64,000 nt of DNA from an uncultured Methylophilus sp. (GTDB taxonomy: Bacteria > Pseudomonadota > Gammaproteobacteria > Burkholderiales > Methylophilaceae), in NCBI GenBank assembly GCA_966248215.1, contig CBIMYT010000007.1, forward strand, positions 26,167 to 90,166, read 5' to 3'. Shown one piece after another: positions 12,696 through 58,287 of the stretch. The position numbers were made by a program, and so were the translations under genes. Positions within the stretch are counted from its first letter, which is position 1. Every line of letters starts with the position of its first letter. Under the pieces are notes generated by a model. The model worked only from the letters and a program-made list of their open reading frames with translations, was not told where the DNA came from and searched no databases.

Positions 12696-13922
12696 TCAGA
12701 GGTTTTTGGTAGACAGCGTCAGTGAGGCGTTGGTACCACCAAAGCCGAAGCTGTTGGACAAGGCCGTTTGTACACGCGTGGAAGGAATGGCCTGGCGCAC
12801 GATATTCAAGCCTTCCGCAGCCGGGTCCAGATTGTCGATATTGGCAGAGGCAGCGATAAACCCATGCTGCATCATCAACAAAGTGTAAATCGCTTCATTC
12901 ACACCAGCCGCGCCCAGTGCATGTCCGGATAATGACTTGGTTGACGCAATCGCCACCTGACTGTCATCACCAAATACCGCACGAATGGCTTCCAGCTCTT
13001 TGGTATCGCCTACCGGTGTACTGGTTCCATGCGTATTGATGTAATCAATATCATTGACATCCAGACCCTGCAATGCCTGTTGCATGCAGCGTACCGCACC
13101 TTCGCCGCTGGGTGCGACCATGTCGTAACCATCAGATGTCGCCCCATAACCCACAATTTCAGCATAAATGTGCGCACCACGGGCTTTGGCATGTTCATAC
13201 TCTTCCAGCACGACAATCCCGCCGCCACCTGAAATCACGAAGCCATCACGATCTGCATCGTAAGTACGTGAAGCCTTGTCCGGTGTTTCGTTATATTTGC
13301 TGGACAAAGCGCCCATGGCATCAAACAGATAGCTCATGGTCCAGTGCTCTTCTTCACCACCACCGGCAAACACAATATCCTGCTTGTCGAGCTGGATCTG
13401 CTCCACACCGGCGCCAATACAGTGTGCGCTGGTAGAACAGGCAGAACTGATTCCGTAATTGACACCCTTGATTTTCGCACCGGTCGCCAGGCAGGCTGCA
13501 ATCCCGCTACTCATGGTTTTAGTCACCATATAAGGACCCACGCGACGAATACCCTTTTCTGCCAGCGTGTTGGTGCCTTCCAGCATACTCTCGGTAGAAG
13601 TACCACCGGCACCGACAATCAGGCCGGTACGCACATTGGACACCAGCTCTTCAGGCAGCTGCGCATCGGCAATTGCCTCCTGCATGGCCAGCCAGGCGTA
13701 GGCATGACCTTTGGCCATAAAACGCAACAGTTTGCGATCTATGAGTGCCTCGATATCCAGATTCCTGATAGAACCAGCCACATGCGAACGCAAGCCGCGC
13801 TCGGCATATTCCGGCTGGTATGTAATACCTGAACGGCCTGCTTTCAGGCTGTCCAGTACTTCCTGTTTGTTATTACCGAGACTTGATACGATACCAAATC
13901 CTGTAATTACTACGCGACGCAT
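12696..13922 (-). CDS. fabB: 3-oxoacyl-ACP synthase I
   Basis: [13 protein letters not shown] start, active-site Cys (SSACSTS), His motifs ([19 protein letters not shown]) and 408 aa. Immediately downstream of fabA. Confidence 0.9.
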
Positions 13923-14712: not shown

Positions 14713-15729
14713 ATGCAAGATCAACAACTAGCCGATTGGCGCACACAGGCGTTAAAACTTGAGTCAGAAGTCAACAAAGTAGTGGTGGGTCAGGAAAATC
14801 CGGTACGCCTGATCACCATTGCCGTTTTTGCGCGCGGCCACGTGCTGCTGGAAGGCGATGTCGGCGTCGGCAAAACCACCCTGCTGCGTGCGTTTACCCG
14901 TGGGATTGGCGGTGGCTATCAGCGGATTGAAGGTACCATTGACCTGATGCCTAATGACCTGGTCTACCACACCTATCTGGGCGAAGACGGCAAGCCACAT
15001 GTCAGCCCTGGTCCATTGCTGATGTCGGGCCAGGACCTGTCGATTTTCTTCTTTAACGAAATCAACCGTGCCCGGCCACAGGTGCACTCCCTGATGTTAC
15101 GTGTCATGGCAGAACGTACCCTGACCGCCTTCAACAAAGAACACACCTTCCCGCATATGCTGGTATTCGCTGACCGAAACCAGGTTGAAAAAGAGGAAAC
15201 TTTCGATATTCCGTCAGCGGCGCGTGACCGTTTCATGATGGAAATCCCGATTGTGGTACCGCCAGCGCATGACATTATGGAGTCGCTGATTTTCGATACG
15301 CGCTTTCATGATGTGGATCAGCTGATTACCAATGTCGAAGCGGATGTGCTGAAGTTTGACCAGTTGAACAGCTTTGCCAAAGTAATCCAGGAAAATATTT
15401 TCGCCAGTCCTGCACTGCGCAAATATGCGCTTAACCTGTGGCTCGCGACCAAAGACCCGGTAGCCTACGGCGTCAATGTTGCCAACGTCGACATGAAGCG
15501 CCTGGTGTTGTCTGGTGCCAGCCCGCGCGGCATGGGGATGCTGCTGCGTGCAGCGCGCGTCAATGCCTGGCTGCATAATCGAAATGCCGTGGTGCCTGAA
15601 GACATTCATGCCGTGTTGCATGAAACCATCGCGCACCGCCTGGTATTCAGTCCGGTCTACGAAATGCGCCGTACCGAAATCGCGCGTGAAATGCTGTCCG
15701 GCATCGTCAACGCCGTGGCCGCACCTTAA
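14713..15729 (+). CDS. MoxR-family AAA+ ATPase (MxaR-like)
   Basis: Walker A GDVGVGKTT, Walker B-like FFFNEINRA, 338 aa. First gene of a MoxR/DUF58/vWA cluster. Confidence 0.85.
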   Translation: MQDQQLADWRTQALKLESEVNKVVVGQENPVRLITIAVFARGHVLLEGDVGVGKTTLLRAFTRGIGGGYQRIEGTIDLMPNDLVYHTYLGEDGKPHVSPGPLLMSGQDLSIFFFNEINRARPQVHSLMLRVMAERTLTAFNKEHTFPHMLVFADRNQVEKEETFDIPSAARDRFMMEIPIVVPPAHDIMESLIFDTRFHDVDQLITNVEADVLKFDQLNSFAKVIQENIFASPALRKYALNLWLATKDPVAYGVNVANVDMKRLVLSGASPRGMGMLLRAARVNAWLHNRNAVVPEDIHAVLHETIAHRLVFSPVYEMRRTEIAREMLSGIVNAVAAP

Positions 15730-15755: not shown

Positions 15756-16613
15756 ATGGATTACATCAAGGAATTCAGCTATCACATCAGCTGGCGCTCA
15801 CGCTCCCGTCGGCCTGGTCGCCATAAAAGCAACCAGCGCGGCATGGGGATGGAGTTTCGCGGGCACACCACCCTGCTCTCGTACCCGGATCCACGCCGGA
15901 TTGATATTCGCCAGACCATACGCGACCCGATGGAACAGGTGTATGTGCGTATCTTTAACCAGAAAAGTGCCACGCCTGTATTTGTCATATGCGATTTGTC
16001 CGGCTCCATGCAGTACGGCATGCCACATACAAAACTGACCACGGCAGCGCATATCTCGCGCTCGGTGGCACAGTCAGCCACCCGTAACGGTGACCCGGTG
16101 GCATTTGTCGGCTTTGATGACGAATTACGCGATGAGTGGCTATCCACGTTATCGGCCAGGCCGCACAGCATGCTGGCACTGGCAGACCGGCTGGAGAATC
16201 ACCTGCCGGATGAGGTAGGTGCCAGTGCCCTGGCAGACAGCGCCCGACTGCTGCCGCGGGAACGGGCACTGATTTTCATGGTGTCTGACTTTCACATGCC
16301 GCTGGCCCAGCTGGAAGAGGCCTTGCTGCTGATGCTGAGACACCATATTGTGCCGGTGGTGTTATGGAACAGTACCGAATACAAGAATCTGCCGGAATTT
16401 GGCATCACCAGCATCAATGACCCGGAGACCGGCGAACGTCGCACATTGTTTTTGCGCGGCTCTTACAGGCAGCGCATATTTGAAGCCTTTGCGGCACGCC
16501 GCCAGGCCATCCAGGATATGTTTATGAAATTTGATATGCAGCCATTTTTCGTGGAAGACCAGTTTGACGCAGACCTGCTGTCTGATTATTTCCACCAATA
16601 CGTGACTGCCTGA
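15756..16613 (+). CDS. DUF58 protein with vWA-like MIDAS motif (MxaS-like)
   Basis: DxSxS motif in ICDLSGSM, 285 aa, in the canonical position directly after the MoxR ATPase. Confidence 0.7.
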   Translation: MDYIKEFSYHISWRSRSRRPGRHKSNQRGMGMEFRGHTTLLSYPDPRRIDIRQTIRDPMEQVYVRIFNQKSATPVFVICDLSGSMQYGMPHTKLTTAAHISRSVAQSATRNGDPVAFVGFDDELRDEWLSTLSARPHSMLALADRLENHLPDEVGASALADSARLLPRERALIFMVSDFHMPLAQLEEALLLMLRHHIVPVVLWNSTEYKNLPEFGITSINDPETGERRTLFLRGSYRQRIFEAFAARRQAIQDMFMKFDMQPFFVEDQFDADLLSDYFHQYVTA

Positions 16614-16625
16614 GGAAAGCGATTG

Positions 16626-17618
16626 ATGAAAGCGCCCAACCCCTTATTTGCCGGCCTGTTTGCTGCTACATTATTTGCCCTCGCTACATTGCCAGCCATG
16701 GCCGATGTGGTCTTGCCGTCAATTGATGAGAAGTATGTCAGCGTGCAGGAAATCAACCCAACCCGCGATGCCGGTTATGTGGTCGGTGACAAACTTGAAC
16801 GTACCATTATCCTGACAGTGAAAAAGCCTTATGAGCTGATCAAGGAATCCCTGCCTATCGTCGGCTATGAACACCGTTTTCGTGGTGAGGTCTCCGGTAT
16901 AGAGCTGGCCAGTATTGATGCGGACGAGGAGAAGTTTTCGGACCGTAGCGTGCATACCATCCATCTGGCATACCAGGTATTCAAATCAGGCAGAGTCGCC
17001 AAGCCTGCCATCCTGCGCGGTGAAATCGTCAAATTGCGCCAGCCTGGCAAGACAGAACTGCGCCAGTACCGTATCCCTTCGTTTAATTTCAGGATCTCCC
17101 CTTTATCGGTCTATGGTGAAGTCAATCTGAAACAGGAGTTGAGCCCGTTTATCCCACCCTTCACGATCAGCACAAGCAGGGAACAACAGGTATTCAATAT
17201 CGCCGCCGGCGTGCTGGTGTTGAGCTTGCTCGCGCTACTGTATATTCTGGGTGCACGCACCTGGCTGCCGCGCATGGGTGGTGCATTTGCCAAAGCCTAC
17301 CGCACAATCGGCAAACTGCCGGATAACGAACAGGGCCTGCAACAGGCGATTGAGATCGTCCACCAGGCCATGCAGCAGGTGGCGGGACATAGTGTATTTG
17401 GCAATAATGTAGAACGTTTCCTGCAGGAAAAACCGGCTTACCAGCCTGCCAAACCGGAAATCCAGCGCTTTTTCAATCTTTCGCGCCAGGTATTTTTTGA
17501 TGCCAGTACTCCGCTGGACCTGGGGCTGCCTGCTAAAGACTGGCTGAGAAAGTTCTGCCGCCATATGCGCGATTGCGAACGTGGTCTGACCCCAGACCTG
17601 AACACAAGGGTGAAATAG
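16626..17618 (+). CDS. Membrane-anchored exported protein, MxaA-like by position
   Basis: Signal peptide (ATLPAMA), one internal TM helix (IAAGVLVLSLLALLYILG). Size and position match mxaA in mxaRSACKL. No motif was recognised. ATG at 16626 preferred over TTG at 16623. Confidence 0.35.
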   Translation: MKAPNPLFAGLFAATLFALATLPAMADVVLPSIDEKYVSVQEINPTRDAGYVVGDKLERTIILTVKKPYELIKESLPIVGYEHRFRGEVSGIELASIDADEEKFSDRSVHTIHLAYQVFKSGRVAKPAILRGEIVKLRQPGKTELRQYRIPSFNFRISPLSVYGEVNLKQELSPFIPPFTISTSREQQVFNIAAGVLVLSLLALLYILGARTWLPRMGGAFAKAYRTIGKLPDNEQGLQQAIEIVHQAMQQVAGHSVFGNNVERFLQEKPAYQPAKPEIQRFFNLSRQVFFDASTPLDLGLPAKDWLRKFCRHMRDCERGLTPDLNTRVK

Positions 17619-40142: not shown

Positions 40143-40233
40143 GGAGAAGTGGCAGAGCTGGTTGAATGTACCTGACTCGAAATCAGGCATACGTGAAAGC
40201 GTATCGGGGGTTCGAATCCCCCCTTCTCCGCCA
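40143..40233 (+). tRNA. tRNA-Ser (anticodon CGA)
   Basis: 91 nt. Acceptor GGAGAAG/CTTCTCC plus G-CCA, anticodon arm CCTGA-CTCGAAA-TCAGG, long variable arm, T-arm GGGGG-TTCGAAT-CCCCC. Folded by eye. Confidence 0.9.
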
Positions 40234-48050: not shown

Positions 48051-48279
48051 ACTTATCTCCTTCAGGCGCACATTATAAATGACTCGCCTTCAGAACAAAT
48101 TAGCTCATCCGGGTAACATTAAGCGTAATCTCCCATGCAGACTCTTGACTTTTTCAGCCGCCTTTGCACAAAAAACAGCGTTTTAAAGTACCACTCGAAA
48201 AATATAAAGAAATTCGCAAAAAGTGGTTGACCAAGGCGCGTGGTCTCAGTAATATAGCGCCTTCAAACGACGTACCGAT

Positions 48280-48355
48280 TCCTCAATAGCTCAGTCGGTA
48301 GAGCGCCGGACTGTTAATCCGTAGGTCCCTGGTTCGAGCCCAGGTTGAGGAGCCA
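48280..48355 (+). tRNA. tRNA-Asn (anticodon GTT), intact
   Basis: 76 nt. Acceptor TCCTCAA/TTGAGGA plus G-CCA, D-arm GCTC-AGTCGGTA-GAGC, anticodon loop CTGTTAA, T-arm CCTGG-TTCGAGC-CCAGG. Folded by eye; C27-U43 is unpaired. Confidence 0.92.
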
Positions 48356-48358
48356 AAT
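48310..48358 (+). repeat. Left copy of the 49-bp direct repeat (tRNA-Asn 3-prime 46 nt plus 3 nt), attL-like
   Basis: ACTGTTAATCCGTAGGTCCCTGGTTCGAGCCCAGGTTGAGGAGCCAAAT is identical base for base to 58005-58053. Confidence 0.9.
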
Positions 48359-49939
48359 TGATGCAAAAGTGGGCACTGTTAATTCAGCGCCCATTTTTTT
48401 CGTCTCAACAATCGCACTGGCCATCGCGTCATAGCTTCCGGATATAGTCGCCTCGCCATCTTTCAGCACAATCTCATGGACAAGCCCTTTCAAGTATTGC
48501 TTGCCGAAATTAGACTTGCGATCTGTCAGCTTACTTTTTAACACCTGCGTGAACACGTTGATGTTTTTATTATTCAATGCGTCAACTGGCATATCTTGCT
48601 GCCGTTTCATAGCTGCAATCTCTAATAAGATATCCTGCCGCCTTGTTTGAATGCTTCTTGATCTGCTCTGTAATGTTTCATCCATCGGCAGAAAGCCCTT
48701 CTCCACAGCTTCAAATAACCGTTCGTTACGTTGGTTTAACTCCTCCAGCTCTTTTTGTAGCGGCTGCGCGTGATTGGACTGGTCTTTGTTGCGCTGCACG
48801 ATCCGTTTTCGCATTTCTTGCATCATCGTGGAAACTCGCGCGGGCGTAAAAACCCTGTCTGCAAGGTTGGTCAGCACAAGATTGTCCAGTTTTTCCATTG
48901 AAATGGCAGGCATGGTGCACAAATGATTGCCCTTCCCGATGCGGGTATTGCATTTATAGTACCGATAGCGCCCGCCTTTACCCGTTGCCAGCGTCATGCC
49001 AGCACCACAGATGCCGCATTTCAATATGCCAGTGAGCAGTGTCGGGGAATTGACTAACCTCGGCGCCACTTTTGCGGGCGCGCGGTCCGCTCTGCGGATC
49101 CGTGCGTCCTCAAAGGTGCTCGCCTCGATGATCGCAGGTATCTCTACCTTGATCCATTCGCTTTCTGGTTTGAGCTCGCCGGTCTTGTTATTGCGCTTAT
49201 TAAAGTAATACTCGCCAATGTAGGCTTTGTTTGAAAGCACCTCATGCACGCGGCTGCGGTTCCATTTCTGAGTGCGTAACAGGATGTTTTTGCTATTTAG
49301 ATAGGTAGCGATCTCTTTCGCACCCATATGGCCTTGTTCGTTGCCGAACAGATATAAATGAAAAATCTTTTTGACCAGTTCTGATTCAACCGGATCAATA
49401 TCTATTTTCTTTTTCTTTTTGCTTTTAGCACCCATGACTTCAATTTCAACTGCGCGATAGCCAAATGGTGCCCGTGATCCATTCATGTACCCGCGTCTGG
49501 CGTTTTCTTTCATGGCGCGGATGGTGTGTTTACCGTTTTCTTTACTCTGGTACTCATCGAATAAACTAAAAACCTTACTAGCCATTTCCCCGGCTGGGTC
49601 ATCGCTTGTGATCTGAGTAATAGAGATCAGCTTGCAATGCGCCCTTCTCAGTTTTCGTTCATAGCTTAAAAACTCATACATATCGCGAAAGAAGCGTGAC
49701 CGACTATGTACGATGATGGCCTCATAGGGTTCGCTGTCGCTTGTGGCATCGGCAATCATCTGTTGAAACGCAGGTCGCCGGTCATCGGTGGCGGATGCAC
49801 CTGGCTCGATATATTCCATCGCCACGACATAACCATTTGCCTGACACCAGTCACGCATTTGATTGATCTGATCTGGGATTGATAAATCCTTTTCAGCCTG
49901 CCTGACTGTAGATACTCTCGCATAAAGTGCAACTGCCAT
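48314..49939 (-). CDS. Large serine recombinase (resolvase domain + recombinase domain + zinc ribbon + coiled coil)
   Basis: N-terminal YARVSTVRQ catalytic-serine motif. Cys-rich zinc ribbon CGICGAGM ... YYKCNTRIGKGNHLC. 541 aa. The last 15 codons (including the stop) lie within 48314-48358, antisense to the tRNA-Asn 3-prime end. Confidence 0.85.
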   Translation of the reverse strand: MAVALYARVSTVRQAEKDLSIPDQINQMRDWCQANGYVVAMEYIEPGASATDDRRPAFQQMIADATSDSEPYEAIIVHSRSRFFRDMYEFLSYERKLRRAHCKLISITQITSDDPAGEMASKVFSLFDEYQSKENGKHTIRAMKENARRGYMNGSRAPFGYRAVEIEVMGAKSKKKKKIDIDPVESELVKKIFHLYLFGNEQGHMGAKEIATYLNSKNILLRTQKWNRSRVHEVLSNKAYIGEYYFNKRNNKTGELKPESEWIKVEIPAIIEASTFEDARIRRADRAPAKVAPRLVNSPTLLTGILKCGICGAGMTLATGKGGRYRYYKCNTRIGKGNHLCTMPAISMEKLDNLVLTNLADRVFTPARVSTMMQEMRKRIVQRNKDQSNHAQPLQKELEELNQRNERLFEAVEKGFLPMDETLQSRSRSIQTRRQDILLEIAAMKRQQDMPVDALNNKNINVFTQVLKSKLTDRKSNFGKQYLKGLVHEIVLKDGEATISGSYDAMASAIVETKKMGAELTVPTFASIWLLNLGSNQGPTD

Positions 49940-49945
49940 TTGTAC

Positions 49946-50074
49946 TTACTCCCCTTCTATTTCAATACGCTGTAACAACTCAGCTAAAATTTCAGAAAAA
50001 AAAGTGCTGATCAACTGCATCTCGATTTCTTTCACACTCTCAGAAACAAAACTATGATGAAGAACCGCTACCAT
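49946..50074 (-). CDS. Possible 42-aa ORF between the Rep-like and recombinase genes
   Basis: Hand translation gives MVAVLHHSFVSESVKEIEMQLISTFFSEILAELLQRIEIEGE. Its ATG overlaps the Rep-like stop (ATGGTAG), and its stop lies 6 nt before the recombinase ATG. No homology recognised. Confidence 0.2.
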   Translation of the reverse strand: MVAVLHHSFVSESVKEIEMQLISTFFSEILAELLQRIEIEGE

Positions 50075-51150
50075 TCGCCCAACCTCATTTCATTCGCCCT
50101 GCGGTCAACTTCTTGCTGCCATGTTAGTGGATCGTGGATTTCAGAAACAATATTGAATAAATGCTGAAACGCTTCATCCATATATGACTTTGGATTACCT
50201 GAATACAAAACATCAATGGCCGCTACTCGCTTGATGTAGCCATATACGCTTAATGCAATTCTGGTTAATCGCTCATCGTAAAGATCAAGCGGCTTATGCT
50301 CTCGTTTAATGCCTAGACCTTGGAGGGTATCAATTTGAGCTAATAAATCCTTCCAAAGCGGATGTATTGCCCAGCGTGAACGATTGCTGTCATCGCCCTT
50401 GATTCGTAATGATGTGTGATTTGTTGAAAGGGAACGAAGCAAATCTGCCTGTCGCTCCTCAAGTGATTGCATGGATGAAATGCCCAATTTGCGAAGCTGA
50501 TCTTTTCGGACTTGCCATTCAATGCGCCACACATCTTGATCAATGCCCCAAAGTCTAAAAAGCCAGCTTTTTTGACTTTTCTCATTGATCTCATCTACTT
50601 TGTTGTACACCCTGAGAACGACATTTTCAGTACCAAATTTGAAAGTTTGGACTTTGCCATCCTTCCGATATTGGCTATCTTTGGTTGACCTTGATACAAA
50701 ACTATCCTCATCAAAATCAATCAGTGGGAGATGGTAGTCAAACGCGTAATCTACGCGTGACAATCTTTCGGGCTGGGCTTGAGTTAATCCAACTGATGCA
50801 GCCCAATTTAAGAAACGCTGATGCAATGTCAGCAAATCGTTATGCCATAACGCAATGCTGCGAAACTTAACGAAGAAGTTCGGTCGGTTAAACTCACCAA
50901 ATTGAATAATGAAGACATCATTTTCAATCAGGAATGGATAACCGCTAGCAGTGCCATGTGAAGCAAGCAAGAAATCCTCACAACCAAGCTTTATTGGTTT
51001 TGGTTTTTTTATCTTGGCTTTAGCAAGCGATTCTTTTTTCGATGCTAGATCAACAAAGTCTAATTTTGAGATACCTAAAGGGATTAAGTAATAGGCACAC
51101 TCAATTGTATCGAAGCCAGATAACAGAAATTGTGATAAGGGTTTTTTCAT
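50068..51150 (-). CDS. Divergent replication-initiation-factor-like (Rep_trans-like) protein
   Basis: The motif order matches the clearer Rep at 55372-56346: GFDTIECAYY versus IDWLAFT, LSRVDYAFDY versus ITRIDLAHDD, VLRVYNKVDE versus ILRIYEKGKQ, and WRIEWQVRKDQL versus WVRAEVEFKDKD. The family call is tentative. Confidence 0.45.
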   Translation of the reverse strand: MKKPLSQFLLSGFDTIECAYYLIPLGISKLDFVDLASKKESLAKAKIKKPKPIKLGCEDFLLASHGTASGYPFLIENDVFIIQFGEFNRPNFFVKFRSIALWHNDLLTLHQRFLNWAASVGLTQAQPERLSRVDYAFDYHLPLIDFDEDSFVSRSTKDSQYRKDGKVQTFKFGTENVVLRVYNKVDEINEKSQKSWLFRLWGIDQDVWRIEWQVRKDQLRKLGISSMQSLEERQADLLRSLSTNHTSLRIKGDDSNRSRWAIHPLWKDLLAQIDTLQGLGIKREHKPLDLYDERLTRIALSVYGYIKRVAAIDVLYSGNPKSYMDEAFQHLFNIVSEIHDPLTWQQEVDRRANEMRLGEW

Positions 51151-51164
51151 ACCCCTTATCTTAA

Positions 51165-51196
51165 ACCAAAAACAAAGGGGTCATCAAGACCCCTTT
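51165..51196 (-). terminator. Hairpin plus U-run immediately upstream of the Rep-like gene
   Basis: AAAGGGGTC(51174-51182)/GACCCCTTT(51188-51196). On the minus strand it is followed by GUUUUUGG. Confidence 0.45.
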
Positions 51197-51319
51197 AGAT
51201 AAATTTAATTAGAAATTATTCTACGATCTTCAATTTTTATATCGCCGCTGACGACTTTCCAAAAATTACCGATTTTCTTTGCCAGATTTAAACCAACTGA
51301 ACGACTTGATTGCGATCCC

Positions 51320-51562
51320 TCATCTGGAAAAAATTCTTTGTTCATATTTTCTAATGGTTCGTTTGTTATGGACAATTAATAAAACACGCCACCCGTAGTA
51401 ATCGCCAAATCTTAAAAAACCTAATGCCGCCTGAAGTTCGTCAAGCGAACCAGAAAAGTTTGCAACGGCATCACGCTCAATCTTTAAAAGCTCTTGCTCG
51501 CGCTCGCTAGTCCTGTCAGGCATTAATGCGAGATTATGATCTTTATGCGGATTCGTGTTCAT
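51320..51562 (-). CDS. Hypothetical 80-aa protein, divergent from the methyltransferase gene
   Basis: ORF only; no motif recognised. A 46-aa alternative ORF (51205-51345, MNKEFFPDEGSQ...) overlaps its 3-prime end. Confidence 0.3.
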   Translation of the reverse strand: MNTNPHKDHNLALMPDRTSEREQELLKIERDAVANFSGSLDELQAALGFLRFGDYYGWRVLLIVHNKRTIRKYEQRIFSR

Positions 51563-51660
51563 ATGAGGTTTCTCTTTTGATTTTTATACCATATCAAAAT
51601 AAGGGGTACACATCAACCCTATAAGTTCCTAAAAAACTCTCTTGTTTAACCAGTTCTATA

Positions 51661-51670
51661 AATGTACATT
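51661..51670. promoter_or_regulatory. 10-bp perfect palindrome AATGTACATT in the divergent promoter region of the R-M module
   Basis: Read directly from the sequence. A CCCCCG/CGGGGG hairpin (51691-51713) follows, 23 nt before the methyltransferase ATG. Confidence 0.3.
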
Positions 51671-51735
51671 GTTGATTATGTATTTTGAGCCCCCCGTGTT
51701 ACATAATCGGGGGTTGTTAATAGGGTAGAAAGTTT

Positions 51736-52995
51736 ATGAGTTTGAAGGTTTTGGATACTTTTGCGGGCGCTGGCGGGTTCAGCCTTGGATTTGAAATGGC
51801 GGGTGCGTCAATCATTGGCGCTATTGAAATGGATAGTTGGGCATGTGAAACCTTTAAGCATAACCATCCTAATTCATTGGTGCTTCAAGGAGATATTACT
51901 CAAATTACAGATGCTCAAATCTTAGAAACTTTCAATAATTCTAAACCAGATGTAATACTAGGAGGTCCTCCTTGCCAGGGATTTTCTATCGCTAATAAAA
52001 GGAATGGTGATCACAAAGATCCTAGAAACTCATTGTTCAAAGAGTTTATTCGAGTGGGTAAACTTTTAAATCCTGAGTTTATGATAATGGAGAATGTTCC
52101 AAATCTAATAAAAGCACAAACAGAATCTAAAGAATTGGTTATAGATATCATCTGTGATGAATTAAGAAATTTAGGTTACTTTGTAGACTATCGGATTCTT
52201 GAAGCTACTAATTATGGCGTTCCACAAATTAGAAAGAGGCTTTTTGTTATTGCATCAAAAAAGAAATTAGCAAGGCCCTTCCCTGATCGAACACACACAC
52301 TCTATCCAAAGCTGGATTTACTTGATGCGGATCTTTTGCAATGTCCAAGCGTATGGGACGCTATATCCGATCTACCAGAGTTAGAAGCTCGGGAAGGTGC
52401 TGAAGAATTAAATTACACCACTAGCGCAAAAAATGAATACCAAAAAATGCTTCGTGGAAACTCTCCATTTGTGTTCAATCATAAAGCAATGAATCATTCG
52501 AAAAGATTAGTTGATAGATTTTCTTCAATGAGCTGGGGAGATTCAACATCTGATGTTCCTGACCACTTGCGGCCATATAAAAGAAATAGCAAAGAGTTTT
52601 CCGAAAAGGCATATGATCAGAACAATAGACGCATGCATCCTGATAAGCCTTGTCACACTATAGCAGCGTCGTTCTATGCAAACTTCGTTCATCCCTATAA
52701 AAATAGAAACTTCACGGCTCGAGAAGGAGCCAGAATTCAATCGTTCCCTGATTGGTTCGTTTTTAAGGGAAAGCCAACTGTAATCAGTCATAAGCTTTTA
52801 CAAAGAGAAGGTAGGCATGAGGAGAAACACTTGTGCCAATACAACCAAATTGGAAATGCTGTACCCCCGCTACTCGCAAAAGCAGTAGCATTGAATATTA
52901 TTAATCAATTCAAAAAAGAAGAGAGGATCGAGAGTGTTCGTACATGGGAACAATTTGGAGCAGAAAGAAACTCATACGACGAAGTACAGGGATGA
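51736..52995 (+). CDS. DNA (cytosine-5)-methyltransferase
   Basis: Motif I LDTFAGAGGFSLGF, motif IV GGPPCQGFS, motif VI ENVPNL, motif VIII QIRKRLFVI, motif X QIGNAVPPLL. 419 aa. Confidence 0.92.
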   Translation: MSLKVLDTFAGAGGFSLGFEMAGASIIGAIEMDSWACETFKHNHPNSLVLQGDITQITDAQILETFNNSKPDVILGGPPCQGFSIANKRNGDHKDPRNSLFKEFIRVGKLLNPEFMIMENVPNLIKAQTESKELVIDIICDELRNLGYFVDYRILEATNYGVPQIRKRLFVIASKKKLARPFPDRTHTLYPKLDLLDADLLQCPSVWDAISDLPELEAREGAEELNYTTSAKNEYQKMLRGNSPFVFNHKAMNHSKRLVDRFSSMSWGDSTSDVPDHLRPYKRNSKEFSEKAYDQNNRRMHPDKPCHTIAASFYANFVHPYKNRNFTAREGARIQSFPDWFVFKGKPTVISHKLLQREGRHEEKHLCQYNQIGNAVPPLLAKAVALNIINQFKKEERIESVRTWEQFGAERNSYDEVQG

Positions 52996-53803
52996 AGGAT
53001 CTATTGTCTACCTAAAAGAAATTAGAGCGCGCTATGATGAATGGAAATCTGCAAACCTAGCGCTTATTGGTCCAACTAAAATTTTAGCTGACAATGATAG
53101 TGAAATTATTAAAAAAAGAGTTGAGCTTCTTAACGATTATAAAGATTTTATTGACCAGCAACATTACGCTGAACAATTCGACTCTCGCTCAAATTTACAC
53201 TCGTCTGTATTAGAAGAGTTTATGTATTACCTTTTTAAGGATTTAGAAAATTCAATTTCAAACTCAGCTTTAATCGGTAAATCTCACACATTTAAAGATT
53301 TATTTTTTAGCGCAGATAGTTATGCAGATATGTTAGATACCCCAACAATTAGGGTTGAACGGAAAGATCATGACTTTGCTATTGGGGTAAAAATCGAAGC
53401 CAGTTTTAAGACTGCTGGCCAGACGAAGGCAGAAACAAACGTTTGGGATTTGCCAGCAATAGCAATTGAATGCAAAACATATCTTGATAAAACAATGTTG
53501 CAAGACGCATCAACGGCTGCGGAAATCATTAAGCACAGAAATCCAAATGCTCTTTATATCGTAGTAGCTGAATGGCTGAAACTAACAGAGGCGGTTAATA
53601 TTCGCAAATTTAAAATTGATCAAATATATGTACTTAGAAAACAGAAAAATACTGATCGCGAATATAGATACAAGGAAACTTATGTAAAAAACCCTATTCA
53701 TCATGACGCAACTATTCATTTATATGAAACTGTTCGTCAATTCCTTACTACCCCGTGGGAAGGCAGTGTGAATCACGGATTGCAAAGAGGGTATCTGCTG
53801 TAG
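52934..53803 (+). CDS. Candidate type II restriction endonuclease partner
   Basis: GTG start with GAGAGGA 6 nt upstream, overlapping the last 62 nt of the methyltransferase gene. Candidate PD-(D/E)xK elements (HDFAIGV ... AIAIECKTY). No family recognised, and there is no in-frame ATG until far downstream. Confidence 0.45.
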   Translation: MFVHGNNLEQKETHTTKYRDEGSIVYLKEIRARYDEWKSANLALIGPTKILADNDSEIIKKRVELLNDYKDFIDQQHYAEQFDSRSNLHSSVLEEFMYYLFKDLENSISNSALIGKSHTFKDLFFSADSYADMLDTPTIRVERKDHDFAIGVKIEASFKTAGQTKAETNVWDLPAIAIECKTYLDKTMLQDASTAAEIIKHRNPNALYIVVAEWLKLTEAVNIRKFKIDQIYVLRKQKNTDREYRYKETYVKNPIHHDATIHLYETVRQFLTTPWEGSVNHGLQRGYLL

Positions 53804-53883
53804 ATTTAGTTAAAGAATTCATTGTAGAGCTATCAATCTATCAAGATTAATACTTTCCAGTTACCAGATTTAATAGTATTGGT

Positions 53884-53933
53884 GAGCCAAATAAAAGAAG
53901 CCTTGCAGAGATGCAGGGCTTTTTGCTTTTCTG
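53884..53933 (+). repeat. Partial att copy: GAGCCAAAT plus a diverged duplicate of the tRNA-Asn terminator region
   Basis: 45 of 50 positions are identical to 58045-58094 (hand alignment, no gaps). Substitutions in the stem preserve pairing (G-U). Confidence 0.7.
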
Positions 53934-53957
53934 TCTCTGTCACCATTTTGTCAACCA

Positions 53958-54953
53958 TTAACCACGTATAAAGTTTTCCAATCGCTTACTTGCCCCTTTG
54001 ATTTGTTCAGGAGCGATATGCGCATACCTTTCGACCATAGCAGAGGTTTTCCAACCACCTAGCTTTTGCAGCTCATGCGTAGGTGTGCCAGCTTGCCTAT
54101 GCCATGTTGCCCAAGTATGCCGCAAGTCATGCCAGCGGAAATCTTCAATCCCAGCACGTTTAAGCGCTTCACGCCATGCGCGTGTATTCAGGTTTGCAAT
54201 TGGGTTTCCTTTATACGTAAAAACGTTTTTAGGATGTTTGCCCTTTTGCTTAAGAATAATTTCCTTGGCTGTTTCTTCGAGATAGACAGGAATCGGACTA
54301 CCATTTTTTGACTTATCCGCTGGCACTGTTAAATAGCCAGTTTCCAAGTCAATCCATGACCATTCCATATTTGAAATATTGCCTTGCCGCAAACCAGTCA
54401 TGGCTGCAAACAAAACAATATCCTGCATATGATCAGGTAATTCCTGCATCAATTGTTCAAACTGCTGTTTTGTTAAAGAACGTTCTCGCCCTCTGGGTTC
54501 TCGGTAGAGTTTGATAAATACAACTTTATCCACCCACTCCCATTCATTCTGGGCTTTGCGCAAAATCGCACGTATTAAAGCAAGGTAGCGATTAACGGTC
54601 GTTTTTTTAGCCTCTTTGAGTTTGGTTACTTTTACCTTATCAATCACCTGTAAGGTAATTTCATCCAGCGTCAAATTGCCAAAAAAAGCATCCAGCCATT
54701 TCAGCTTTTTAATGTCCTCAAGATGCGTTCTTTTGTCACTGGTTTCTTGAAGCCACCTTGTAACCGCCTCATGCCAATAACGTTTAGGTTTAATCCCTAA
54801 GCGTTTTTGCAACCATAAATCAGCAGTTAACTTGTCGTGATACTCTTGCGCCAAGGCTTTATCTGTCGTGCCTGTAGTTTTATAGAGTATCTGACCGTCA
54901 ATGCTAATTTTTGCCCACCAGTTAGGTGAGCCCTTCCGTCGATATAAAGACAT
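53958..54953 (-). CDS. Tyrosine-type site-specific integrase
   Basis: The C-terminal catalytic region has WHDLRHTWATWH (HxLRH) and the tyrosine in MVERYAH. The N-terminal SAM-like arm/core binding region is present. 331 aa. Confidence 0.9.
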   Translation of the reverse strand: MSLYRRKGSPNWWAKISIDGQILYKTTGTTDKALAQEYHDKLTADLWLQKRLGIKPKRYWHEAVTRWLQETSDKRTHLEDIKKLKWLDAFFGNLTLDEITLQVIDKVKVTKLKEAKKTTVNRYLALIRAILRKAQNEWEWVDKVVFIKLYREPRGRERSLTKQQFEQLMQELPDHMQDIVLFAAMTGLRQGNISNMEWSWIDLETGYLTVPADKSKNGSPIPVYLEETAKEIILKQKGKHPKNVFTYKGNPIANLNTRAWREALKRAGIEDFRWHDLRHTWATWHRQAGTPTHELQKLGGWKTSAMVERYAHIAPEQIKGASKRLENFIRG

Positions 54954-54964
54954 AAACTTCCTTT

Positions 54965-55384
54965 CTATGCCTTTACGTCATCCGCTGGTCGATTGTGGCA
55001 TGTACGCGACTTGCCCACAAGCTCCACAGCCTTGCCTTTGGCAACCCGATCGGCTGCCCGTGCGTGGCTGTCGCCCCGCAGCCGATCAGGCGTTGGGCTA
55101 TGGATTTGTGGACAATCGCTCAAGCCAAGCACTTTTAAATATTCTGATTTGGTGGGCGTGATTACAACATCGCTTCTTGTACGCTGTTCTTTTACGATTA
55201 CGTTTTGCTTTTGTTGGTCAGGATTAAAGTTACCACGCAGGAAATCGACAAGATGGCTTTTAAGAAATAGCCATCTCTTACCGGGCTTTGCTGCTGGAAT
55301 AATCCCTGCTTTTGCTTTCTTCGTAAGTGTGATCGGGTGCATTTGCAGTAAAGCTGCGGCCTGTTTGATATTCAGGATTTCCAT
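54965..55384 (-). CDS. Helix-turn-helix (excisionase/MerR-like HTH_17) DNA-binding protein
   Basis: The N-terminus LNIKQAAALLQMHPITLTKKAKAGIIPAAKPGKRWLF is typical of excisionase-family HTH proteins. Its start overlaps the rep stop by 13 nt, and its stop lies 11 nt before the integrase start. Confidence 0.6.
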   Translation of the reverse strand: MEILNIKQAAALLQMHPITLTKKAKAGIIPAAKPGKRWLFLKSHLVDFLRGNFNPDQQKQNVIVKEQRTRSDVVITPTKSEYLKVLGLSDCPQIHSPTPDRLRGDSHARAADRVAKGKAVELVGKSRTCHNRPADDVKA

Positions 55385-56346
55385 GTTTCGTCCTCCTGCA
55401 ATACAGTCGGCAAAAGCGCTGCATAGTTTTCTAAGCGTTTAGGCGTACCCTCACGCCTAATGAGACTTACTACCTCAGCCGCATCACCACGATGTTGCAT
55501 GAGTAAAACATTCACTAACTTTCCCCCCATGTTTCGGAGGTGGTATGTTGCAGCCTCAATGCTAGTTTTTGCTGCTTTACTAATGGTTTTGATTTTTACC
55601 TGTACTTGCGACAAGAAACCTAAACAGGGATATGCAGCTGCCAAGTAGTGAGCAGGATTAGTCAGGATATCCCAAGGAATGATTCTGTCTTTGTCTTTGA
55701 ACTCAACCTCAGCGCGAACCCACAGACTAGACTTATCACCTAACTGTTTGCCCTTCTCATAAATGCGCAATATCTTTCCAGACCCCCTACGCCCTATATA
55801 AAAGGTTCTACCATCACCACTGGCCAAGTCGTCAATCAACGTCGCTTTAACCGCTGTATGCCCTTCCCTTGCACCGTTATGGCTATACATGCCTTGAGAA
55901 TGCCACTGCAATGCTTGTGCGATACTCAATACCTGACCTTCAAAGTCATCGTGAGCTAAGTCTATACGGGTGATTTTACGGGCATGTTCCATACACCATG
56001 CTTGCAGCAATTTCCAATCTGCAATCAATGCACAGCCTTGTGCATTTAGTTGTATGGATGCGGTGCCGCGTTGATTACTGCCGCCATGTGCGATCAAGCC
56101 TAAATTGACTTGACCATCCAAGTGGTGAATGTCGTGGCGCTCTTTGTAGCCGAACCAGCCTTTGCCTGTAGGCTTTAATTCTATTTTTGGGATAAATCGA
56201 CGTAGCTCATTAATCAACCAGACAATGTCGCTGGTTTCAGACAGCTGCACAGTGAAAGCAAGCCAGTCGATATGGGCTATTTGTGGGGAATTGATTCCCC
56301 CCGTAGTTACTAGGCGGGGGGATGATGACGCATTGCTATTTTGCAT
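55372..56346 (-). CDS. Replication initiation factor (Rep_trans / RstA-like)
   Basis: IDWLAFT, ITRIDLAHDD, TFYIGRRGSGKILRIYEKGKQ and WVRAEVEFKDKD, in the family order. ATG at 56346 (GAGG upstream) preferred over the longest ORF start at 56394. Confidence 0.8.
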   Translation of the reverse strand: MQNSNASSSPRLVTTGGINSPQIAHIDWLAFTVQLSETSDIVWLINELRRFIPKIELKPTGKGWFGYKERHDIHHLDGQVNLGLIAHGGSNQRGTASIQLNAQGCALIADWKLLQAWCMEHARKITRIDLAHDDFEGQVLSIAQALQWHSQGMYSHNGAREGHTAVKATLIDDLASGDGRTFYIGRRGSGKILRIYEKGKQLGDKSSLWVRAEVEFKDKDRIIPWDILTNPAHYLAAAYPCLGFLSQVQVKIKTISKAAKTSIEAATYHLRNMGGKLVNVLLMQHRGDAAEVVSLIRREGTPKRLENYAALLPTVLQEDETWKS

Positions 56347-56664
56347 GTTCTCAACCTCATAAAACTTGGGTTGAAAACAGAAAAACCTGCACAACCCAAT
56401 AGTTAATTGGATTGTTAACAGGTTTGCTTTTCCATTATCGGCTTGTTAACTTGCCGGGGAGCTTACCCCGACGGCCGCCTTGCTCAAGGGACGCACTTCG
56501 AGCCTTCGTTTTCAATTATGTTTGCGTAATTTCTGCACCTATACTAAACGATTAAAATCCAGAATGTCAACATAAGATGTGCAGGATGTCGCTGTGCGCA
56601 CTGCCGTGCGCAGCAGGGAGCATCCTGACACATCAACTGTTTTGTTTTATCTATCTTATTGCCT

Positions 56665-57756
56665 TTAAATTGCAGCTTTCAATTTACGTAATACCCCTCT
56701 CTTACCTGCTTTTATAATTTGGCTCTTTAGATATTCTGGAGCTTCAATTTCTTCACCCAGTAAAAATTGAGCAAATGCGCGTGCCAATTTTGATTTTCCT
56801 ATTTTCAAATATTCTCGCAGGTATCTATTACGAAAAAATGGGCTACGTACTGCTTTATACATAATAAGCATTGCATCGTCTTTGCTAGAAGAAATCTCTT
56901 CTTGCAGGCCCAGCCCTGCGAATGATTGCAATTGATTTAAACGATCTGCAGTTATATTGGGAAGCCCATTTTTAACGCATAAAATTAAATGCTGATCATA
57001 CAATGCACCGCCAATTGTTTTTGCAGGTAAGATTTTCGCAATGTGGTAATTCTGAAAACCAAATTCTGAGGCTTTCTTAACCCCATCAGGAGTTCTCTTA
57101 ACGCTATTATGACTTATAAGCATTCCGTCTGTAGCAAGATGATTCATAGCGAATGACACATATGCTTGAGCAGTCTTCGCAGGCATTTCTCCAAAACTTG
57201 AAAAATTTAATATCAAGTCAAATTTATCCAATGAGTCGATATTTTCTGGCTTGCGAAAATCATAGTTTGCATCAGGATGAATTTCCCTTAAATAGTATGT
57301 TGAAAGCTGCAACATTTCAGGCAAATCTATTATTGTATAACTTGCCGGAGTTAACATTCGTGTCAGAATTTCAGCCATTCCTCCGTAGCCAGCTCCAATT
57401 TCAAGAATTCTTAAATTCCTTCTATTTTCGAGTTCAAAAACAATTTTTGCTAATGACAAATTTTTAATATATGGGACGCTGGCCTTGTACCCGAGATGAT
57501 TTATGATCAAGGGCTGTCCAGCTGCAGGTTCAGGATATAAATCTAAATCTTGTGGTGATACATGATGCTTATAACGTTCAACCCAACTTTCAAATTGCTT
57601 TGTATACTCTGCTTCGTCAGTAACGCTCATACCAATACCAATTGCAGCAGCTTTCGATGGATTAAGAAAATCAGGACTCACTGTTTTACCTTGCGAAAGC
57701 TCTTTCCACATTATTGATTTTTCACCGAACATACCCACCCCTTTTTTATATAACAT
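56665..57756 (-). CDS. Class I SAM-dependent methyltransferase (substrate unknown)
   Basis: Motif I LRILEIGAGYGGMAEIL and post-I IIDL. No DPPY/NPPY or C5 motifs, so it is not an obvious DNA methyltransferase. 363 aa and very A+T-rich. Confidence 0.7.
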   Translation of the reverse strand: MLYKKGVGMFGEKSIMWKELSQGKTVSPDFLNPSKAAAIGIGMSVTDEAEYTKQFESWVERYKHHVSPQDLDLYPEPAAGQPLIINHLGYKASVPYIKNLSLAKIVFELENRRNLRILEIGAGYGGMAEILTRMLTPASYTIIDLPEMLQLSTYYLREIHPDANYDFRKPENIDSLDKFDLILNFSSFGEMPAKTAQAYVSFAMNHLATDGMLISHNSVKRTPDGVKKASEFGFQNYHIAKILPAKTIGGALYDQHLILCVKNGLPNITADRLNQLQSFAGLGLQEEISSSKDDAMLIMYKAVRSPFFRNRYLREYLKIGKSKLARAFAQFLLGEEIEAPEYLKSQIIKAGKRGVLRKLKAAI

Positions 57757-58004
57757 TCCATGTTTTTCAATAGACAGGCCGTTGTAATTTTACTTTAACA
57801 ACTATTCGTCCAACTTTCCTGATTTTTCTATTTTGTAATCTTCCCTTGTATCCAAACATTCTAGAATTGAGTGTATAAAATGTCACCATTTTGTCACTCA
57901 AACATAATAGCAATTATAAAATTGTAGCTAATTAACATTACTCTAAGTTAAAGCGGATAACGTAAGGCATTGTTTTTTAGATAACTATTAGAAAATGATT
58001 TAAA

Positions 58005-58053
58005 ACTGTTAATCCGTAGGTCCCTGGTTCGAGCCCAGGTTGAGGAGCCAAAT
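58005..58053 (+). repeat. Right copy of the 49-bp direct repeat (tRNA-Asn 3-prime fragment), attR-like
   Basis: Identical to 48310-48358. The base before it differs (A versus G), and the bases after it differ. Confidence 0.9.
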
Positions 58054-58060
58054 ATAAAAA

Positions 58061-58085
58061 GCCTTGTAGAAATGCAAGGCTTTTT
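58061..58085 (+). terminator. Native tRNA-Asn terminator, now displaced about 9.7 kb from the tRNA
   Basis: GCCTTG(58061-58066)/CAAGGC(58075-58080) followed by a T5 run. Confidence 0.6.
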
Positions 58086-58287
58086 GCTTTTCTGCAGATA
58101 GTCCATTCTTCTCCTGCTTGCCGACCCGCTCTCCTGCAATGCCTGCCAAAAATTCACCTGCGTGGCTAGATGTATATTCAACCGATTAAGACCAACCTAC
58201 ACATTAATCGGAAATACCACCCTTTTTTGTGCCTACGCATGGCTTTAGAGTTGATGCTTTCAACTTGATGAAGGCAAAGGAGTGGTT

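Follow-up and report, generated by a model that had tools for sequence, protein, structure and literature searches.

Two integrative elements with unrelated recombinases, probably stacked one after the other in the tRNA-Asn gene of a Methylophilus genome

Introduction

How did 9.7 kb of A+T-rich DNA with two unrelated site-specific recombinase genes come to lie in the 3' end of a single tRNA gene, as one mobile element or as two? The question is raised by a stretch of 64,000 nucleotides from an uncultured Methylophilus sp. (family Methylophilaceae; GenBank assembly GCA_966248215.1, contig CBIMYT010000007.1, positions 26,167 to 90,166 of the forward strand), which as a whole we call the window and in whose numbering positions are given below. 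In it, an intact tRNA-Asn(GTT) gene is followed by an island that carries both recombinase genes. We found that this island is very probably (at a rough probability of 0.85) a tandem array of two independent plasmid-like integrative elements: element B, with a tyrosine integrase, would have arrived first, and element A, with a large serine recombinase (LSR), would have inserted afterwards between the tRNA gene and B.

Results

Anatomy of the tRNA-Asn site

The last 46 nt of the tRNA-Asn gene, which both ARAGORN and Rfam report as intact, form together with the following AAT a 49-bp block that recurs without mismatch at the far end of the island (48310-48358 versus 58005-58053, 49/49). This repeat is not a chance match, as the remaining repeat families of the 13-kb region are shorter or far less exact. 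A third, partial copy lies in the middle of the island at 53884-53933; it consists of GAGCCAAAT, a hairpin and a T-run, and is identical to 58045-58094 at 45 of 50 positions, the similarity to the native terminator region reaching 55 nt at 87%. The three attachment (att) site copies are in direct orientation, and a 9-nt repeat of GAGCCAAAT is nested in the 49-nt repeat, as predicted. The island has a G+C content of 41.2%, against 50.9% and 52.3% in its flanks and about 51% in the genome. By Pfam, its serine recombinase (48314-49939) and tyrosine integrase (53958-54953) belong to unrelated families. The perfect repeat, the partial middle copy, the A+T-rich composition and the two unrelated recombinases had been described in an earlier note on this DNA, made from the letters without database searches, and all of them stand.

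The two halves of the island are similarly equipped: each has a separate recombinase, Rep_trans-type rolling-circle initiator and cargo, and each brings a terminator that replaces the native one of the tRNA. The hairpins of all three terminators fold strongly (Table 1). The A-borne hairpin and T-run now terminate tRNA-Asn, and the native terminator lies 9.7 kb away from its gene. Because each element carries an intrinsic terminator directly after the tRNA, the tRNA is complete and terminated whichever element is proximal. The note had added that substitutions between the terminator stems keep pairing; pairing is indeed kept, but the two substitutions pair only as G-U wobbles that arose from single-sided transitions, and there are no compensatory double changes. 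One further candidate att relic, a 9-mer ACTGTTAAT at 48375-48383 that equals the first 9 nt of the 49-bp repeat, was rejected: it is part of the stem-loop of the A terminator and is absent from the A-like elements at loci L012 and L013.

Empty, single-element and composite states in relatives

An empty site, with the tRNA joined directly to the terminator, and sites with only A or only B had been predicted in the note. Each of these states was found, always in related species and never in this strain, and the 9.6 kb is thus not carried as one unit by all relatives. At the empty sites, L112 and L113, the order is AAT, a 186-aa gene, tRNA-Asn, AAAT and terminator; L112 shares the neighbourhood of the window (aminotransferase, 186-aa gene, tRNA) and has cydAB after the terminator.

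A alone is represented by L009, where a 4.56-kb A-like element (recombinase 93% identical) follows the tRNA and is followed in turn by the native terminator. The homology of A to this locus covers 48198-50023 at 86% and 50068-51063 at 81%. The L009 element has a 10-bp repeat, GAGCCAAATA, at both ends, and the right-end sequence CCAGTTACYAGATT..ATTGGW is common to it and the window: the element ends on ..CCAGTTACTAGATTCATCTAGATTGGA (..ATTGGA) directly before GAGCCAAATA in L009, and on ..CCAGTTACCAGATTTAATAGTATTGGT directly before GAGCCAAAT in the window. L013 is a further A-like module that stands alone at tRNA-Asn with short repeats and, like L009, with no tyrosine integrase inside. In L009 (JGI 3300075941), the block of 186-aa gene, tRNA-Asn, element A and terminator is also inverted relative to both flanks (aminotransferase and cydAB) by comparison with the window and L112, and an extra HAEPLYID-domain gene lies at one end of the inverted block.

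B alone is represented by two loci. L026 (integrase 75% identical) has its own terminator followed by genes for the integrase, an HTH_17 protein, a Rep_trans protein and a different cargo; its 49/49 repeat has exactly the limits seen in the window, from ACTGTTAAT, where the identity block of B starts in both, to GAGCCAAAT. Element B is homologous to it over 53884-56504 at 71.5% and over 57953-58054 at 82%. In L115 (integrase 88% identical; homology over 53884-56494 at 77%), an intact tRNA, 78/78 against the window, is joined to AAAT, AAAAGAAGCCTTGCAGAAATGCAGGGCTTTTTGCTTTTCTG and the integrase gene. This junction is the attL predicted for B before the arrival of A, and its terminator is 1 nt from the middle copy of the window. 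The middle terminator therefore belongs to B and travels with it, and the junction at 53884 is what remains of the attL of B after an insertion at GAGCCAAAT. The same arrangement holds throughout: the integrase gene comes directly after the tRNA in L025, L026 and L115, hairpins equivalent to the B-borne terminator are also present in L025 and L026, and the attL of the B family is always tRNA, hairpin, CTGT..CCA..GTCACCA and integrase gene. That the middle terminator might be the host's own was considered and rejected, since conserved B sequence runs on from it without a break and, in the B-only L115, it stands after the tRNA.

A-like and B-like modules thus do not always co-occur (L009, L013, L026, L115), and among relatives the core modules are conserved while the cargo differs. 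These observations bear on the explanation that the whole 9.7 kb between the 49-bp repeats is one element, mobilised by the tyrosine integrase; the middle copy would then be a relic inside it, and the serine recombinase would act as a resolvase or invertase or be a passenger. Such a unit would account for the perfect outer repeats and for the presence of the whole island in all three assemblies of the species, and the integrase of B could in principle excise A and B jointly (cis-mobilisation). However, A-like modules are found by themselves at tRNA-Asn, with short repeats and without a tyrosine integrase, and B-like modules likewise stand alone; the serine recombinase has the full LSR architecture, unlike a small resolvase, and in 45 of 80 loci members of its family are linked to tRNA 3' ends. 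We regard a single element as improbable.

Two related loci show other kinds of exchange at tRNA-Asn. L111 (VFQP010002575.1, 2-77) is a hybrid tRNA-Asn whose 5' acceptor strand TCCCCGA faces a 3' strand TTGAGGA with one C-A mismatch, followed by a terminator 99% identical to the native terminator of the window; it looks like the attL of an element that brought the 3' half of another host's tRNA. At L114 (VFQN01001511.1, reverse-complement 13189-13263), a 75-nt tRNA-Asn called by ARAGORN is really an attR, made up of element DNA and a 52-bp tRNA 3' fragment, in which the end of the element mimics a tRNA 5' half well enough to score.

Order of arrival and mechanism

The order tRNA-A-B indicates that B came first: with exchange by B in the block that begins in the anticodon loop, an earlier A would have given tRNA-B-A. 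The course of events proposed in the note, in which B integrated through about 49 bp of tRNA identity with an attP that carried a diverged homologue of the host terminator, and A later entered the acceptor-stem end and displaced the attL of B, agrees with the comparisons in all its main points.

A reversed order, or the joining of DNA from an A-only and a B-only strain by homologous recombination through their similar terminators, would be the other ways to build the composite from two elements. Arrays of tRNA, tyrosine-type island, partial tRNA and A-type sequence do occur elsewhere (the L026 remnant described below, L046 and L014), and host and element terminators are 87-96% alike over about 40-50 nt. 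Against this, an A that came first would have B between itself and the tRNA, whereas the window has tRNA-A-B; homologous recombination is poorly served by 40 nt of imperfect identity; and the 53884 junction consists of exactly the right end of A, the 9-nt core and a B terminator 1 nt from that of L115, which is what conservative site-specific insertion into the attL of B predicts. Both of these routes seem very improbable.

The preferred history, with B before A, can be set out as two recombination steps. In the first, B, equipped with a tyrosine integrase, an excisionase-like HTH_17 protein and a Rep_trans protein, would recombine with the tRNA gene through the 49-bp block shared by its attP, which would leave the intact tRNA, the B terminator and the integrase gene on the left, and the 49-bp partial tRNA and the native terminator on the right. 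In the second, A would recombine at GAGCC in the acceptor/CCA end of the rebuilt tRNA. The attL of B would be split by this event, with only GAGCCAAAT and the B terminator remaining at 53884-53933, and the A recombinase gene would come to lie antisense over the 3' half of the tRNA. Excision of A is predicted to give an attP(A) junction ..AATAGTATTGGTGAGCCAAATTGATGCAAAAGTGGGC.. and a restored attL of B, ..GGTTGAGGAGCCAAATAAAAGAAGCCTTGCAG.., and each excised element would presumably be replicated, or nicked for transfer, by its own Rep_trans protein. The serine recombinase would be the enzyme of the 9-nt junctions and the tyrosine integrase that of the 49-bp junctions, and either may still be active at present; across its family, each recombinase type is tied to its own kind of junction.

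To place the exchange by A, attP and attB were reconstructed for the six family members in which both ends could be located. Identity between attL and attR in these elements is 9-14 nt and always includes GAGCC. The attP(A) is an imperfect palindrome of about 55 bp centred on GAGCC, with inverted half-sites, A(G/T)TGCCCAGA on the left arm and its complement on the right, at distances of 16-25 nt from the centre. In five of the six, the A of GAGCC is the centre of the dyad, and the motif CCAnTnnCyAGA-N15-GAGCC recurs at the far end of six family members. Short identity and a dyad-symmetric attP are as would be expected of LSRs. This architecture suggests that strands are exchanged at GA/AG, the last bases of the acceptor stem, while exchange by B is presumed, by analogy with related integrases, to take place in the anticodon loop. 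With the block of B starting in that loop and the dyad centre of A about 40 nt downstream, the enzymes share a tRNA and not the same few bases; the note's suggestion that both use the same bases is therefore not upheld, their exchange sites being likely some 40 nt apart.

The same geometry bears on the idea that A is non-autonomous and was integrated in trans by a tyrosine integrase acting on the 9-14-nt core. A 9-nt core could suit a tyrosine recombinase, and an accessory gene of A is frameshifted in the window. The elements at A-only loci, however, contain no tyrosine integrase, the core is flanked by a dyad with half-sites 16-25 nt from the centre, which is the geometry of a serine-integrase attP and not of core plus arm sites, and the recombinase gene is always found at the attL end, with a constant spacing to the core. 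Integration in trans is accordingly the most remote of the explanations considered here.

Several points weigh against two successive insertions at this site, and the reading needs to be taken with corresponding caution. In all three assemblies that reach the site (the window, L001 and L018), the A+B composite is the same, with about 99.9% identity, and among them there is no presence/absence polymorphism within the species. A search for an empty site within the species, by exact-protein look-ups of the flanking aminotransferase and alcohol dehydrogenase, returned only composite contigs or short contigs that break in the tRNA or the repeat. The composite could also have been acquired as one unit after it had formed in another host. 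Neither an excised circle nor an attP junction turned up; in IMG/VR, nothing matched the attP(A) pattern. The crossover positions are deduced from symmetry and from the limits of identity. A 20-bp deletion also frameshifts the accessory gene of A, so that A may no longer be autonomous here. A possible free form of an A-type element, the 6.6-kb IMG/VR contig L116 (recombinase 57% identical), was set aside as uninformative, since it lacks a terminal repeat and has a decayed tRNA-like stretch after the gene.

Genes and cargo of the two elements

The features of the island are collected in Table 1. Its genes total 10-11, and every one is accounted for. In an open reading frame (ORF) and Pfam inventory of 48359-58004, the elements have their own integration modules but no conjugation apparatus and no transfer gene; a scan of seven core and B-cargo proteins for virion or morphogenesis genes found no structural PHROG.

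Table 1. Features of the tRNA-Asn island, in window coordinates
Feature	Position	Strand	Evidence and remarks
Promoter-like site of the tRNA-Asn gene, TTGACC-17-TAATAT	48227-48255	+	Consensus scan
Intact tRNA-Asn(GTT)	48280-48355	+	ARAGORN; Rfam 68.7 bits; 3' 46 nt inside 49-bp repeat
Left copy of 49-bp identity block of B (anticodon loop to CCA + AAT)	48310-48358	+	49/49 with 58005-58053; element A now between block and B
Large serine recombinase of A, 541 aa	48314-49939	-	Pfam Resolvase, Recombinase and Zn_ribbon_recom
attL core of A (GAGCCAAAT)	48350-48358	+	9-nt repeat with 53884-53892; A-only L009 has GAGCCAAATA at both ends
Element A, serine-recombinase integrative element with Rep_trans-fold initiator and restriction-modification cargo	48359-53883		5,525 bp, 40.7% G+C
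A-borne hairpin and T-run	48366-48402	+	Fold -17.8 kcal/mol, z -4.5
ORF of 42 aa between recombinase and Rep genes	49946-50074	-	48-52-aa ORF at same place in relatives
Rep_trans-fold rolling-circle initiator of A, 360 aa	50068-51150	-	AlphaFold and Foldseek
Conserved accessory gene of A (125 aa long in both L001 and L018)	51205-51582	-	Frameshifted in window
C5 DNA methyltransferase, cargo of A	51736-52995	+	Pfam C5 DNA methylase; TIGR00675 dcm
RE_Bpu10I-domain endonuclease, cargo of A	52934-53803	+	Pfam
Right end of A: P half-site CCAGTTACCAGA, then 15 nt to core	53857-53883	+	Motif CCAnTnnCyAGA-N15-GAGCC
attR core of A (GAGCCAAAT), also last 9 nt of original attL identity block of B	53884-53892	+	Homology of B-only L026 and L115 begins exactly here
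Element B, tyrosine-integrase integrative element	53893-58004		4,112 bp, 41.8% G+C
B-borne tRNA terminator, part of B attP arm	53893-53933	+	1 nt from L115 terminator; fold -19.0 kcal/mol, z -4.3
Tyrosine integrase of B, 331 aa	53958-54953	-	Pfam Phage_integrase 2.6e-26
HTH_17 protein of B	54965-55384	-	Pfam HTH_17; excisionase PHROGs; TIGR01764 below cut-off
Rep_trans replication initiator of B	55372-56394	-	Pfam 94.8 bits versus threshold 29.6; phrog_453 2.7e-80
SAM-dependent, sugar-O-methyltransferase-like protein, cargo of B	56665-57756	-	TIGR04371 (putative sugar O-methyltransferase), 80 bits versus cut-off 44
Right arm of B adjoining attR	57953-58004	+	Conserved with L026
attR of B, right copy of 49-bp identity block, partial tRNA	58005-58053	+	Repeat analysis
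Native terminator of tRNA-Asn gene	58054-58094	+	Homologous terminators directly after tRNA at L112 and L113; fold -17.7 kcal/mol, z -5.8

B is an ordinary small (4.1-kb) tRNA-targeting tyrosine-integrase element. The motifs TGLR, HDLRH and VERYAH of its integrase (R..HxxR..Y) can be read directly in the translation, and its HTH_17 protein is, to judge from the domain match, a likely excisionase or regulator. Relatives of its Rep protein (29-42% identity) are found mostly on IMG/VR contigs of 5-10 kb, the size of an inovirus. The cargo region (36.8% G+C) holds what the note had called an orphan methyltransferase; the protein is methyltransferase-like, but its TIGR04371 match points to a sugar O-methyltransferase and not to a DNA methylase. 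At the same position, L026 has GmrSD/FRG and L115 a small gene with a faint HNH match.

In the serine recombinase of A, the three Pfam domains score 1.4e-28 (Resolvase), 1.5e-18 (PF07508) and 4.3e-17 (PF13408), and an alignment of 13 family members shows Y6-A7-R8-V9-S10-T11 to be invariant, with the serine nucleophile kept. CcrB is its best-scoring named relative (best NCBIfam match, 1e-39), yet at 136.7 bits against the NF047343 cut-off of 900 the protein scores outside the CcrB/DsiB subgroup at the equivalog level. Gene calls place a small ORF beside the recombinase gene in L001, L018, L009, L013 and L014 as well, and these conserved ORFs are candidate directionality factors only.

Two Rep_trans-like genes had been reported in the note, and this proved correct, by Pfam for B and by structure for A. 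At the sequence level the A protein reaches 24.3 bits against the Pfam Rep_trans threshold of 29.6 (2.8e-5) and so falls outside PF02486. Neither BLASTP nor hhalign profile-profile comparison gave a significant link between the Rep proteins of A and B, and the match of A to Protein Data Bank sequences is marginal (E 0.095); the question was settled only by structure comparison. The AlphaFold model (predicted local distance difference test, pLDDT, 86) matches the Rep_trans initiators 4CIJ and 4CWC in Foldseek with E 6e-12 and probability 1.00. The motif R180-x-Y182-x-K184 is invariant in 26 relatives, and LRVYNK in A aligns with LRIYEK in the Rep of B. The annotation of this protein family is 'hypothetical protein' throughout. 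On this model, the 360-aa protein has a Rep_trans fold with a conserved active-site tyrosine motif.

The accessory gene is reduced to an 80-aa ORF by a deletion of 20 bp near 51340 (51332-51345) relative to L001 and L018, which reflects either decay of A in this strain or an assembly error. The two cargo genes of A (51736-53803; G+C 36.9%), absent from the A-like element of L009, are a restriction-modification pair, as the note had reported and Pfam confirms (C5 DNA methylase and RE_Bpu10I). The Bpu10I system consists of two endonuclease subunits and two methylases. With one nuclease and one C5 methylase, the cargo of A appears from its domains to be something other than a Bpu10I system, namely a restriction-modification pair whose nuclease has a Bpu10I-like domain.

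Outside the island, the sequence around the putative tRNA-Asn promoter, assigned from its consensus match, is also present upstream of the empty sites L112 and L113. Another tRNA gene of the window is tRNA-Ser(CGA) at 40143-40233, after which G+C drops to 0.44-0.46 for about 1.3 kb (region to 41500); this stretch holds a 204-aa ORF with no Pfam match, and no integrase lies nearby.

The serine recombinase family and recurrent stacking

A scan of species-representative genomes returned at least 567 relatives of the A recombinase, from Beta-, Alpha- and Gammaproteobacteria, Geobacterales, Nitrospirota and Armatimonadota, and the loci examined are the best 80 of these (40-71% identical). In 45 of the 80, the gene overlaps the 3' end of an intact tRNA in antisense orientation (25 Asn, 13 Arg, 6 Glu, 1 Lys); a further ten run off the contig, and at least six of the remaining loci adjoin a partial tRNA-Asn that starts at ACTGTTAAT and is distal to a tyrosine-type island. 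More distant members among the loci L031-L110 lie antisense on tRNA-Arg (ACG, CCG, CCT, TCG), tRNA-Glu (TTC, CTC) and tRNA-Lys (CTT) in Alphaproteobacteria, Burkholderiales, Bdellovibrionales and others, and the target tRNA seems to change with the clade.

The overlap with the tRNA gene shapes the end of the protein. In the window, the ORF enters tRNA-Asn by 42 nt with its last 14 codons and stop, the stop codon being the reverse complement of TTA in the anticodon loop. Homologues of about 538-541 aa (56-93% identical) are abundant in Betaproteobacteria, and many of them end in ..VPxFxxxW-L-x-x-L-x-SNQGPxD, which is the antisense translation of the tRNA 3' half: read on the tRNA, W is CCA, SNQ the T-loop and the stop the TTA of the anticodon loop. 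Within the A-borne hairpin region (48366-48402) lie, in addition, the attP(A) P' half-site, GTGGGCACT, and the codons that specify ..VPTF.. in the tail. A role of the VPxF...W tail as a functional peptide was considered and rejected, since GTGCCCA, read as VP, is identical with the P' half-site and TGG complements CCA; constraint at the DNA level accounts for the conserved tail, and the conserved frame needs no functional explanation.

A wider reading of these data is that A belongs to a large, essentially undescribed LSR clade whose natural attB is the extreme tRNA 3' end (..GAGCCA), with sub-clades that switch between Asn, Arg, Glu and Lys and a gene that spans attP. We consider this unlikely in its full extent. 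In the same reading, the last 11-18 residues may be encoded by the antisense strand of the host tRNA when the element is integrated and by the far end of the element when it is excised; for A the integrated tail is ..WLLNLGSNQGPTD and that of the excised form is predicted to be ..WLTNTIKSGNWKVLILID. In its strongest version, the tail swap may be functional, the state of the enzyme reporting whether the element is in or out and biasing directionality. A limited literature search found no published description of the clade, of its Rep_trans-fold partner or of the overlap between gene and tRNA, and TIGER/Islander may well list such islands.

Stacking of serine-type and tyrosine-type elements at this tRNA is not exceptional in the clade. 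At L046, tRNA-Asn is followed first by about 8 kb of island with a tyrosine integrase, next by a partial tRNA and then by an A-type element. At L026 (reverse-complement 14934-15140), a frameshifted remnant of about 200 bp of an A-type recombinase C-terminus (..SVPTFVSIWLLNLGSNQGHMD*) with an A-type terminator lies directly after the attR of B; there an A element was first and was later truncated. Together with the six or more loci counted above, these cases indicate that stacking at tRNA-Asn is recurrent and occurs in both orders.

In Janthinobacterium sp. Marseille-P9896 (L012, reverse-complement 16244-17159), the nesting is that of the window: an A-like element, whose 9-nt repeat is GGGGAGCCA, is followed by 0.87 kb (one 75-aa ORF) and then by a 47-bp tRNA 3' repeat. 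The 0.87-kb stretch probably represents what is left of a decayed tyrosine-type island, comparable to a cis-mobilisable element.

Discussion

With empty, A-only, B-only and A+B states all documented, the stack is a fully dissected case of accretion at a tRNA hot spot and adds one more example to a process already known. In the A-type family, serine-recombinase integration takes a new form, and the family merits a study of its own. A family that lands on the most conserved few bases of a tRNA, with a short and readable attP, changes the published picture of serine recombinases at tRNA genes, and its recombinases could supply ready-made integrases for bacteria without engineered landing pads. 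From an ecological viewpoint, tRNA-Asn is shared again and again by serine-type and tyrosine-type elements, in both orders, and neither type destroys the sites of the other.

Comparison with known systems

Tyrosine integrases that target tRNA genes include an anticodon-loop sublocation class, one of the classes reportedly set out by Williams in 2002. B shows the features of this class as far as they can be read from its sequence, namely a Phage_integrase domain, a repeat that runs from the anticodon loop to just past CCA, an integrase gene beside attL and the intact tRNA, and a restored tRNA 3' half. It would be a small member in which nothing is unusual; its Rep_trans module is inovirus-like, and phage structural genes are absent. 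Rep_trans proteins can serve as relaxases in Streptococcus integrative and mobilisable elements (IMEs; PMC7563843). These IMEs and the pSAM2-type integrative and conjugative elements of actinomycetes (AICEs; PMC2440964) resemble the elements of the window in having a core of integrase and rolling-circle initiator, variable cargo and no conjugation machinery; unlike them, the elements of the window have Gram-negative hosts and no transfer gene.

Tandem accretion at one att site is well described and includes tandems of two IMEs and of an integrative and conjugative element (ICE) with an IME (PMC5704250). The ICESt1/ICESt3 arrays of Streptococcus with cis-mobilisable elements (CIMEs) are like the window in their three directly repeated att copies and in the potential excision of each unit or of the whole array. 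Classical accretion arrays involve related tyrosine integrases that use the same core, whereas the recombinases of the window come from unrelated superfamilies with exchange sites about 40 nt apart in one tRNA.

For the swapped tail of A there is a parallel in myxophage Mx8 (intP/intX), in which attP is said to lie in the 3' end of the integrase gene and integration at a tRNA locus to rewrite the C-terminus of the enzyme. The Mx8 Int is a tyrosine recombinase, whereas the swapped tail of A comprises 11 residues from the antisense strand of the tRNA. The main LSR survey makes no mention of tRNA targets (PMC10083194), IMEs with serine recombinases are reviewed as integrating within genes and disrupting them (PMC5704250), and in an actinobacterial survey serine-recombinase integration into tRNA genes is called 'rare' (PMC3218068). 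By description, a close likeness to A is DsiB, the CcrB-like serine recombinase of the Dehalococcoides ssrA islands, which have been proposed to be integrative and mobilisable (McMurdie 2011, PMC3146451). It too is a serine recombinase of about 540 aa, encoded on the reverse strand and adjoining attL at the 3' end of a tRNA-like gene; its islands have short direct repeats and form tandem arrays, and the recombinase of the window scores best to CcrB. The Dehalococcoides islands differ in their tmRNA target (T-loop, 20-bp repeat), in a second small recombinase, DsiA, and in having no reported Rep_trans gene. The Ralstonia inovirus phiRSM1, which integrates into the tRNA-Ser 3' end, and the AICEs of Mycobacterium, which use tRNA-Leu (both as cited in PMC3218068), share with A a serine recombinase at a tRNA 3' end that leaves the gene active. 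As A presumably is, phiRSM1 is a rolling-circle replicon of a betaproteobacterium; the phiRSM enzyme, however, is small and resolvase-like and belongs to a complete filamentous phage, whereas A encodes a 541-aa LSR and carries no virion genes.

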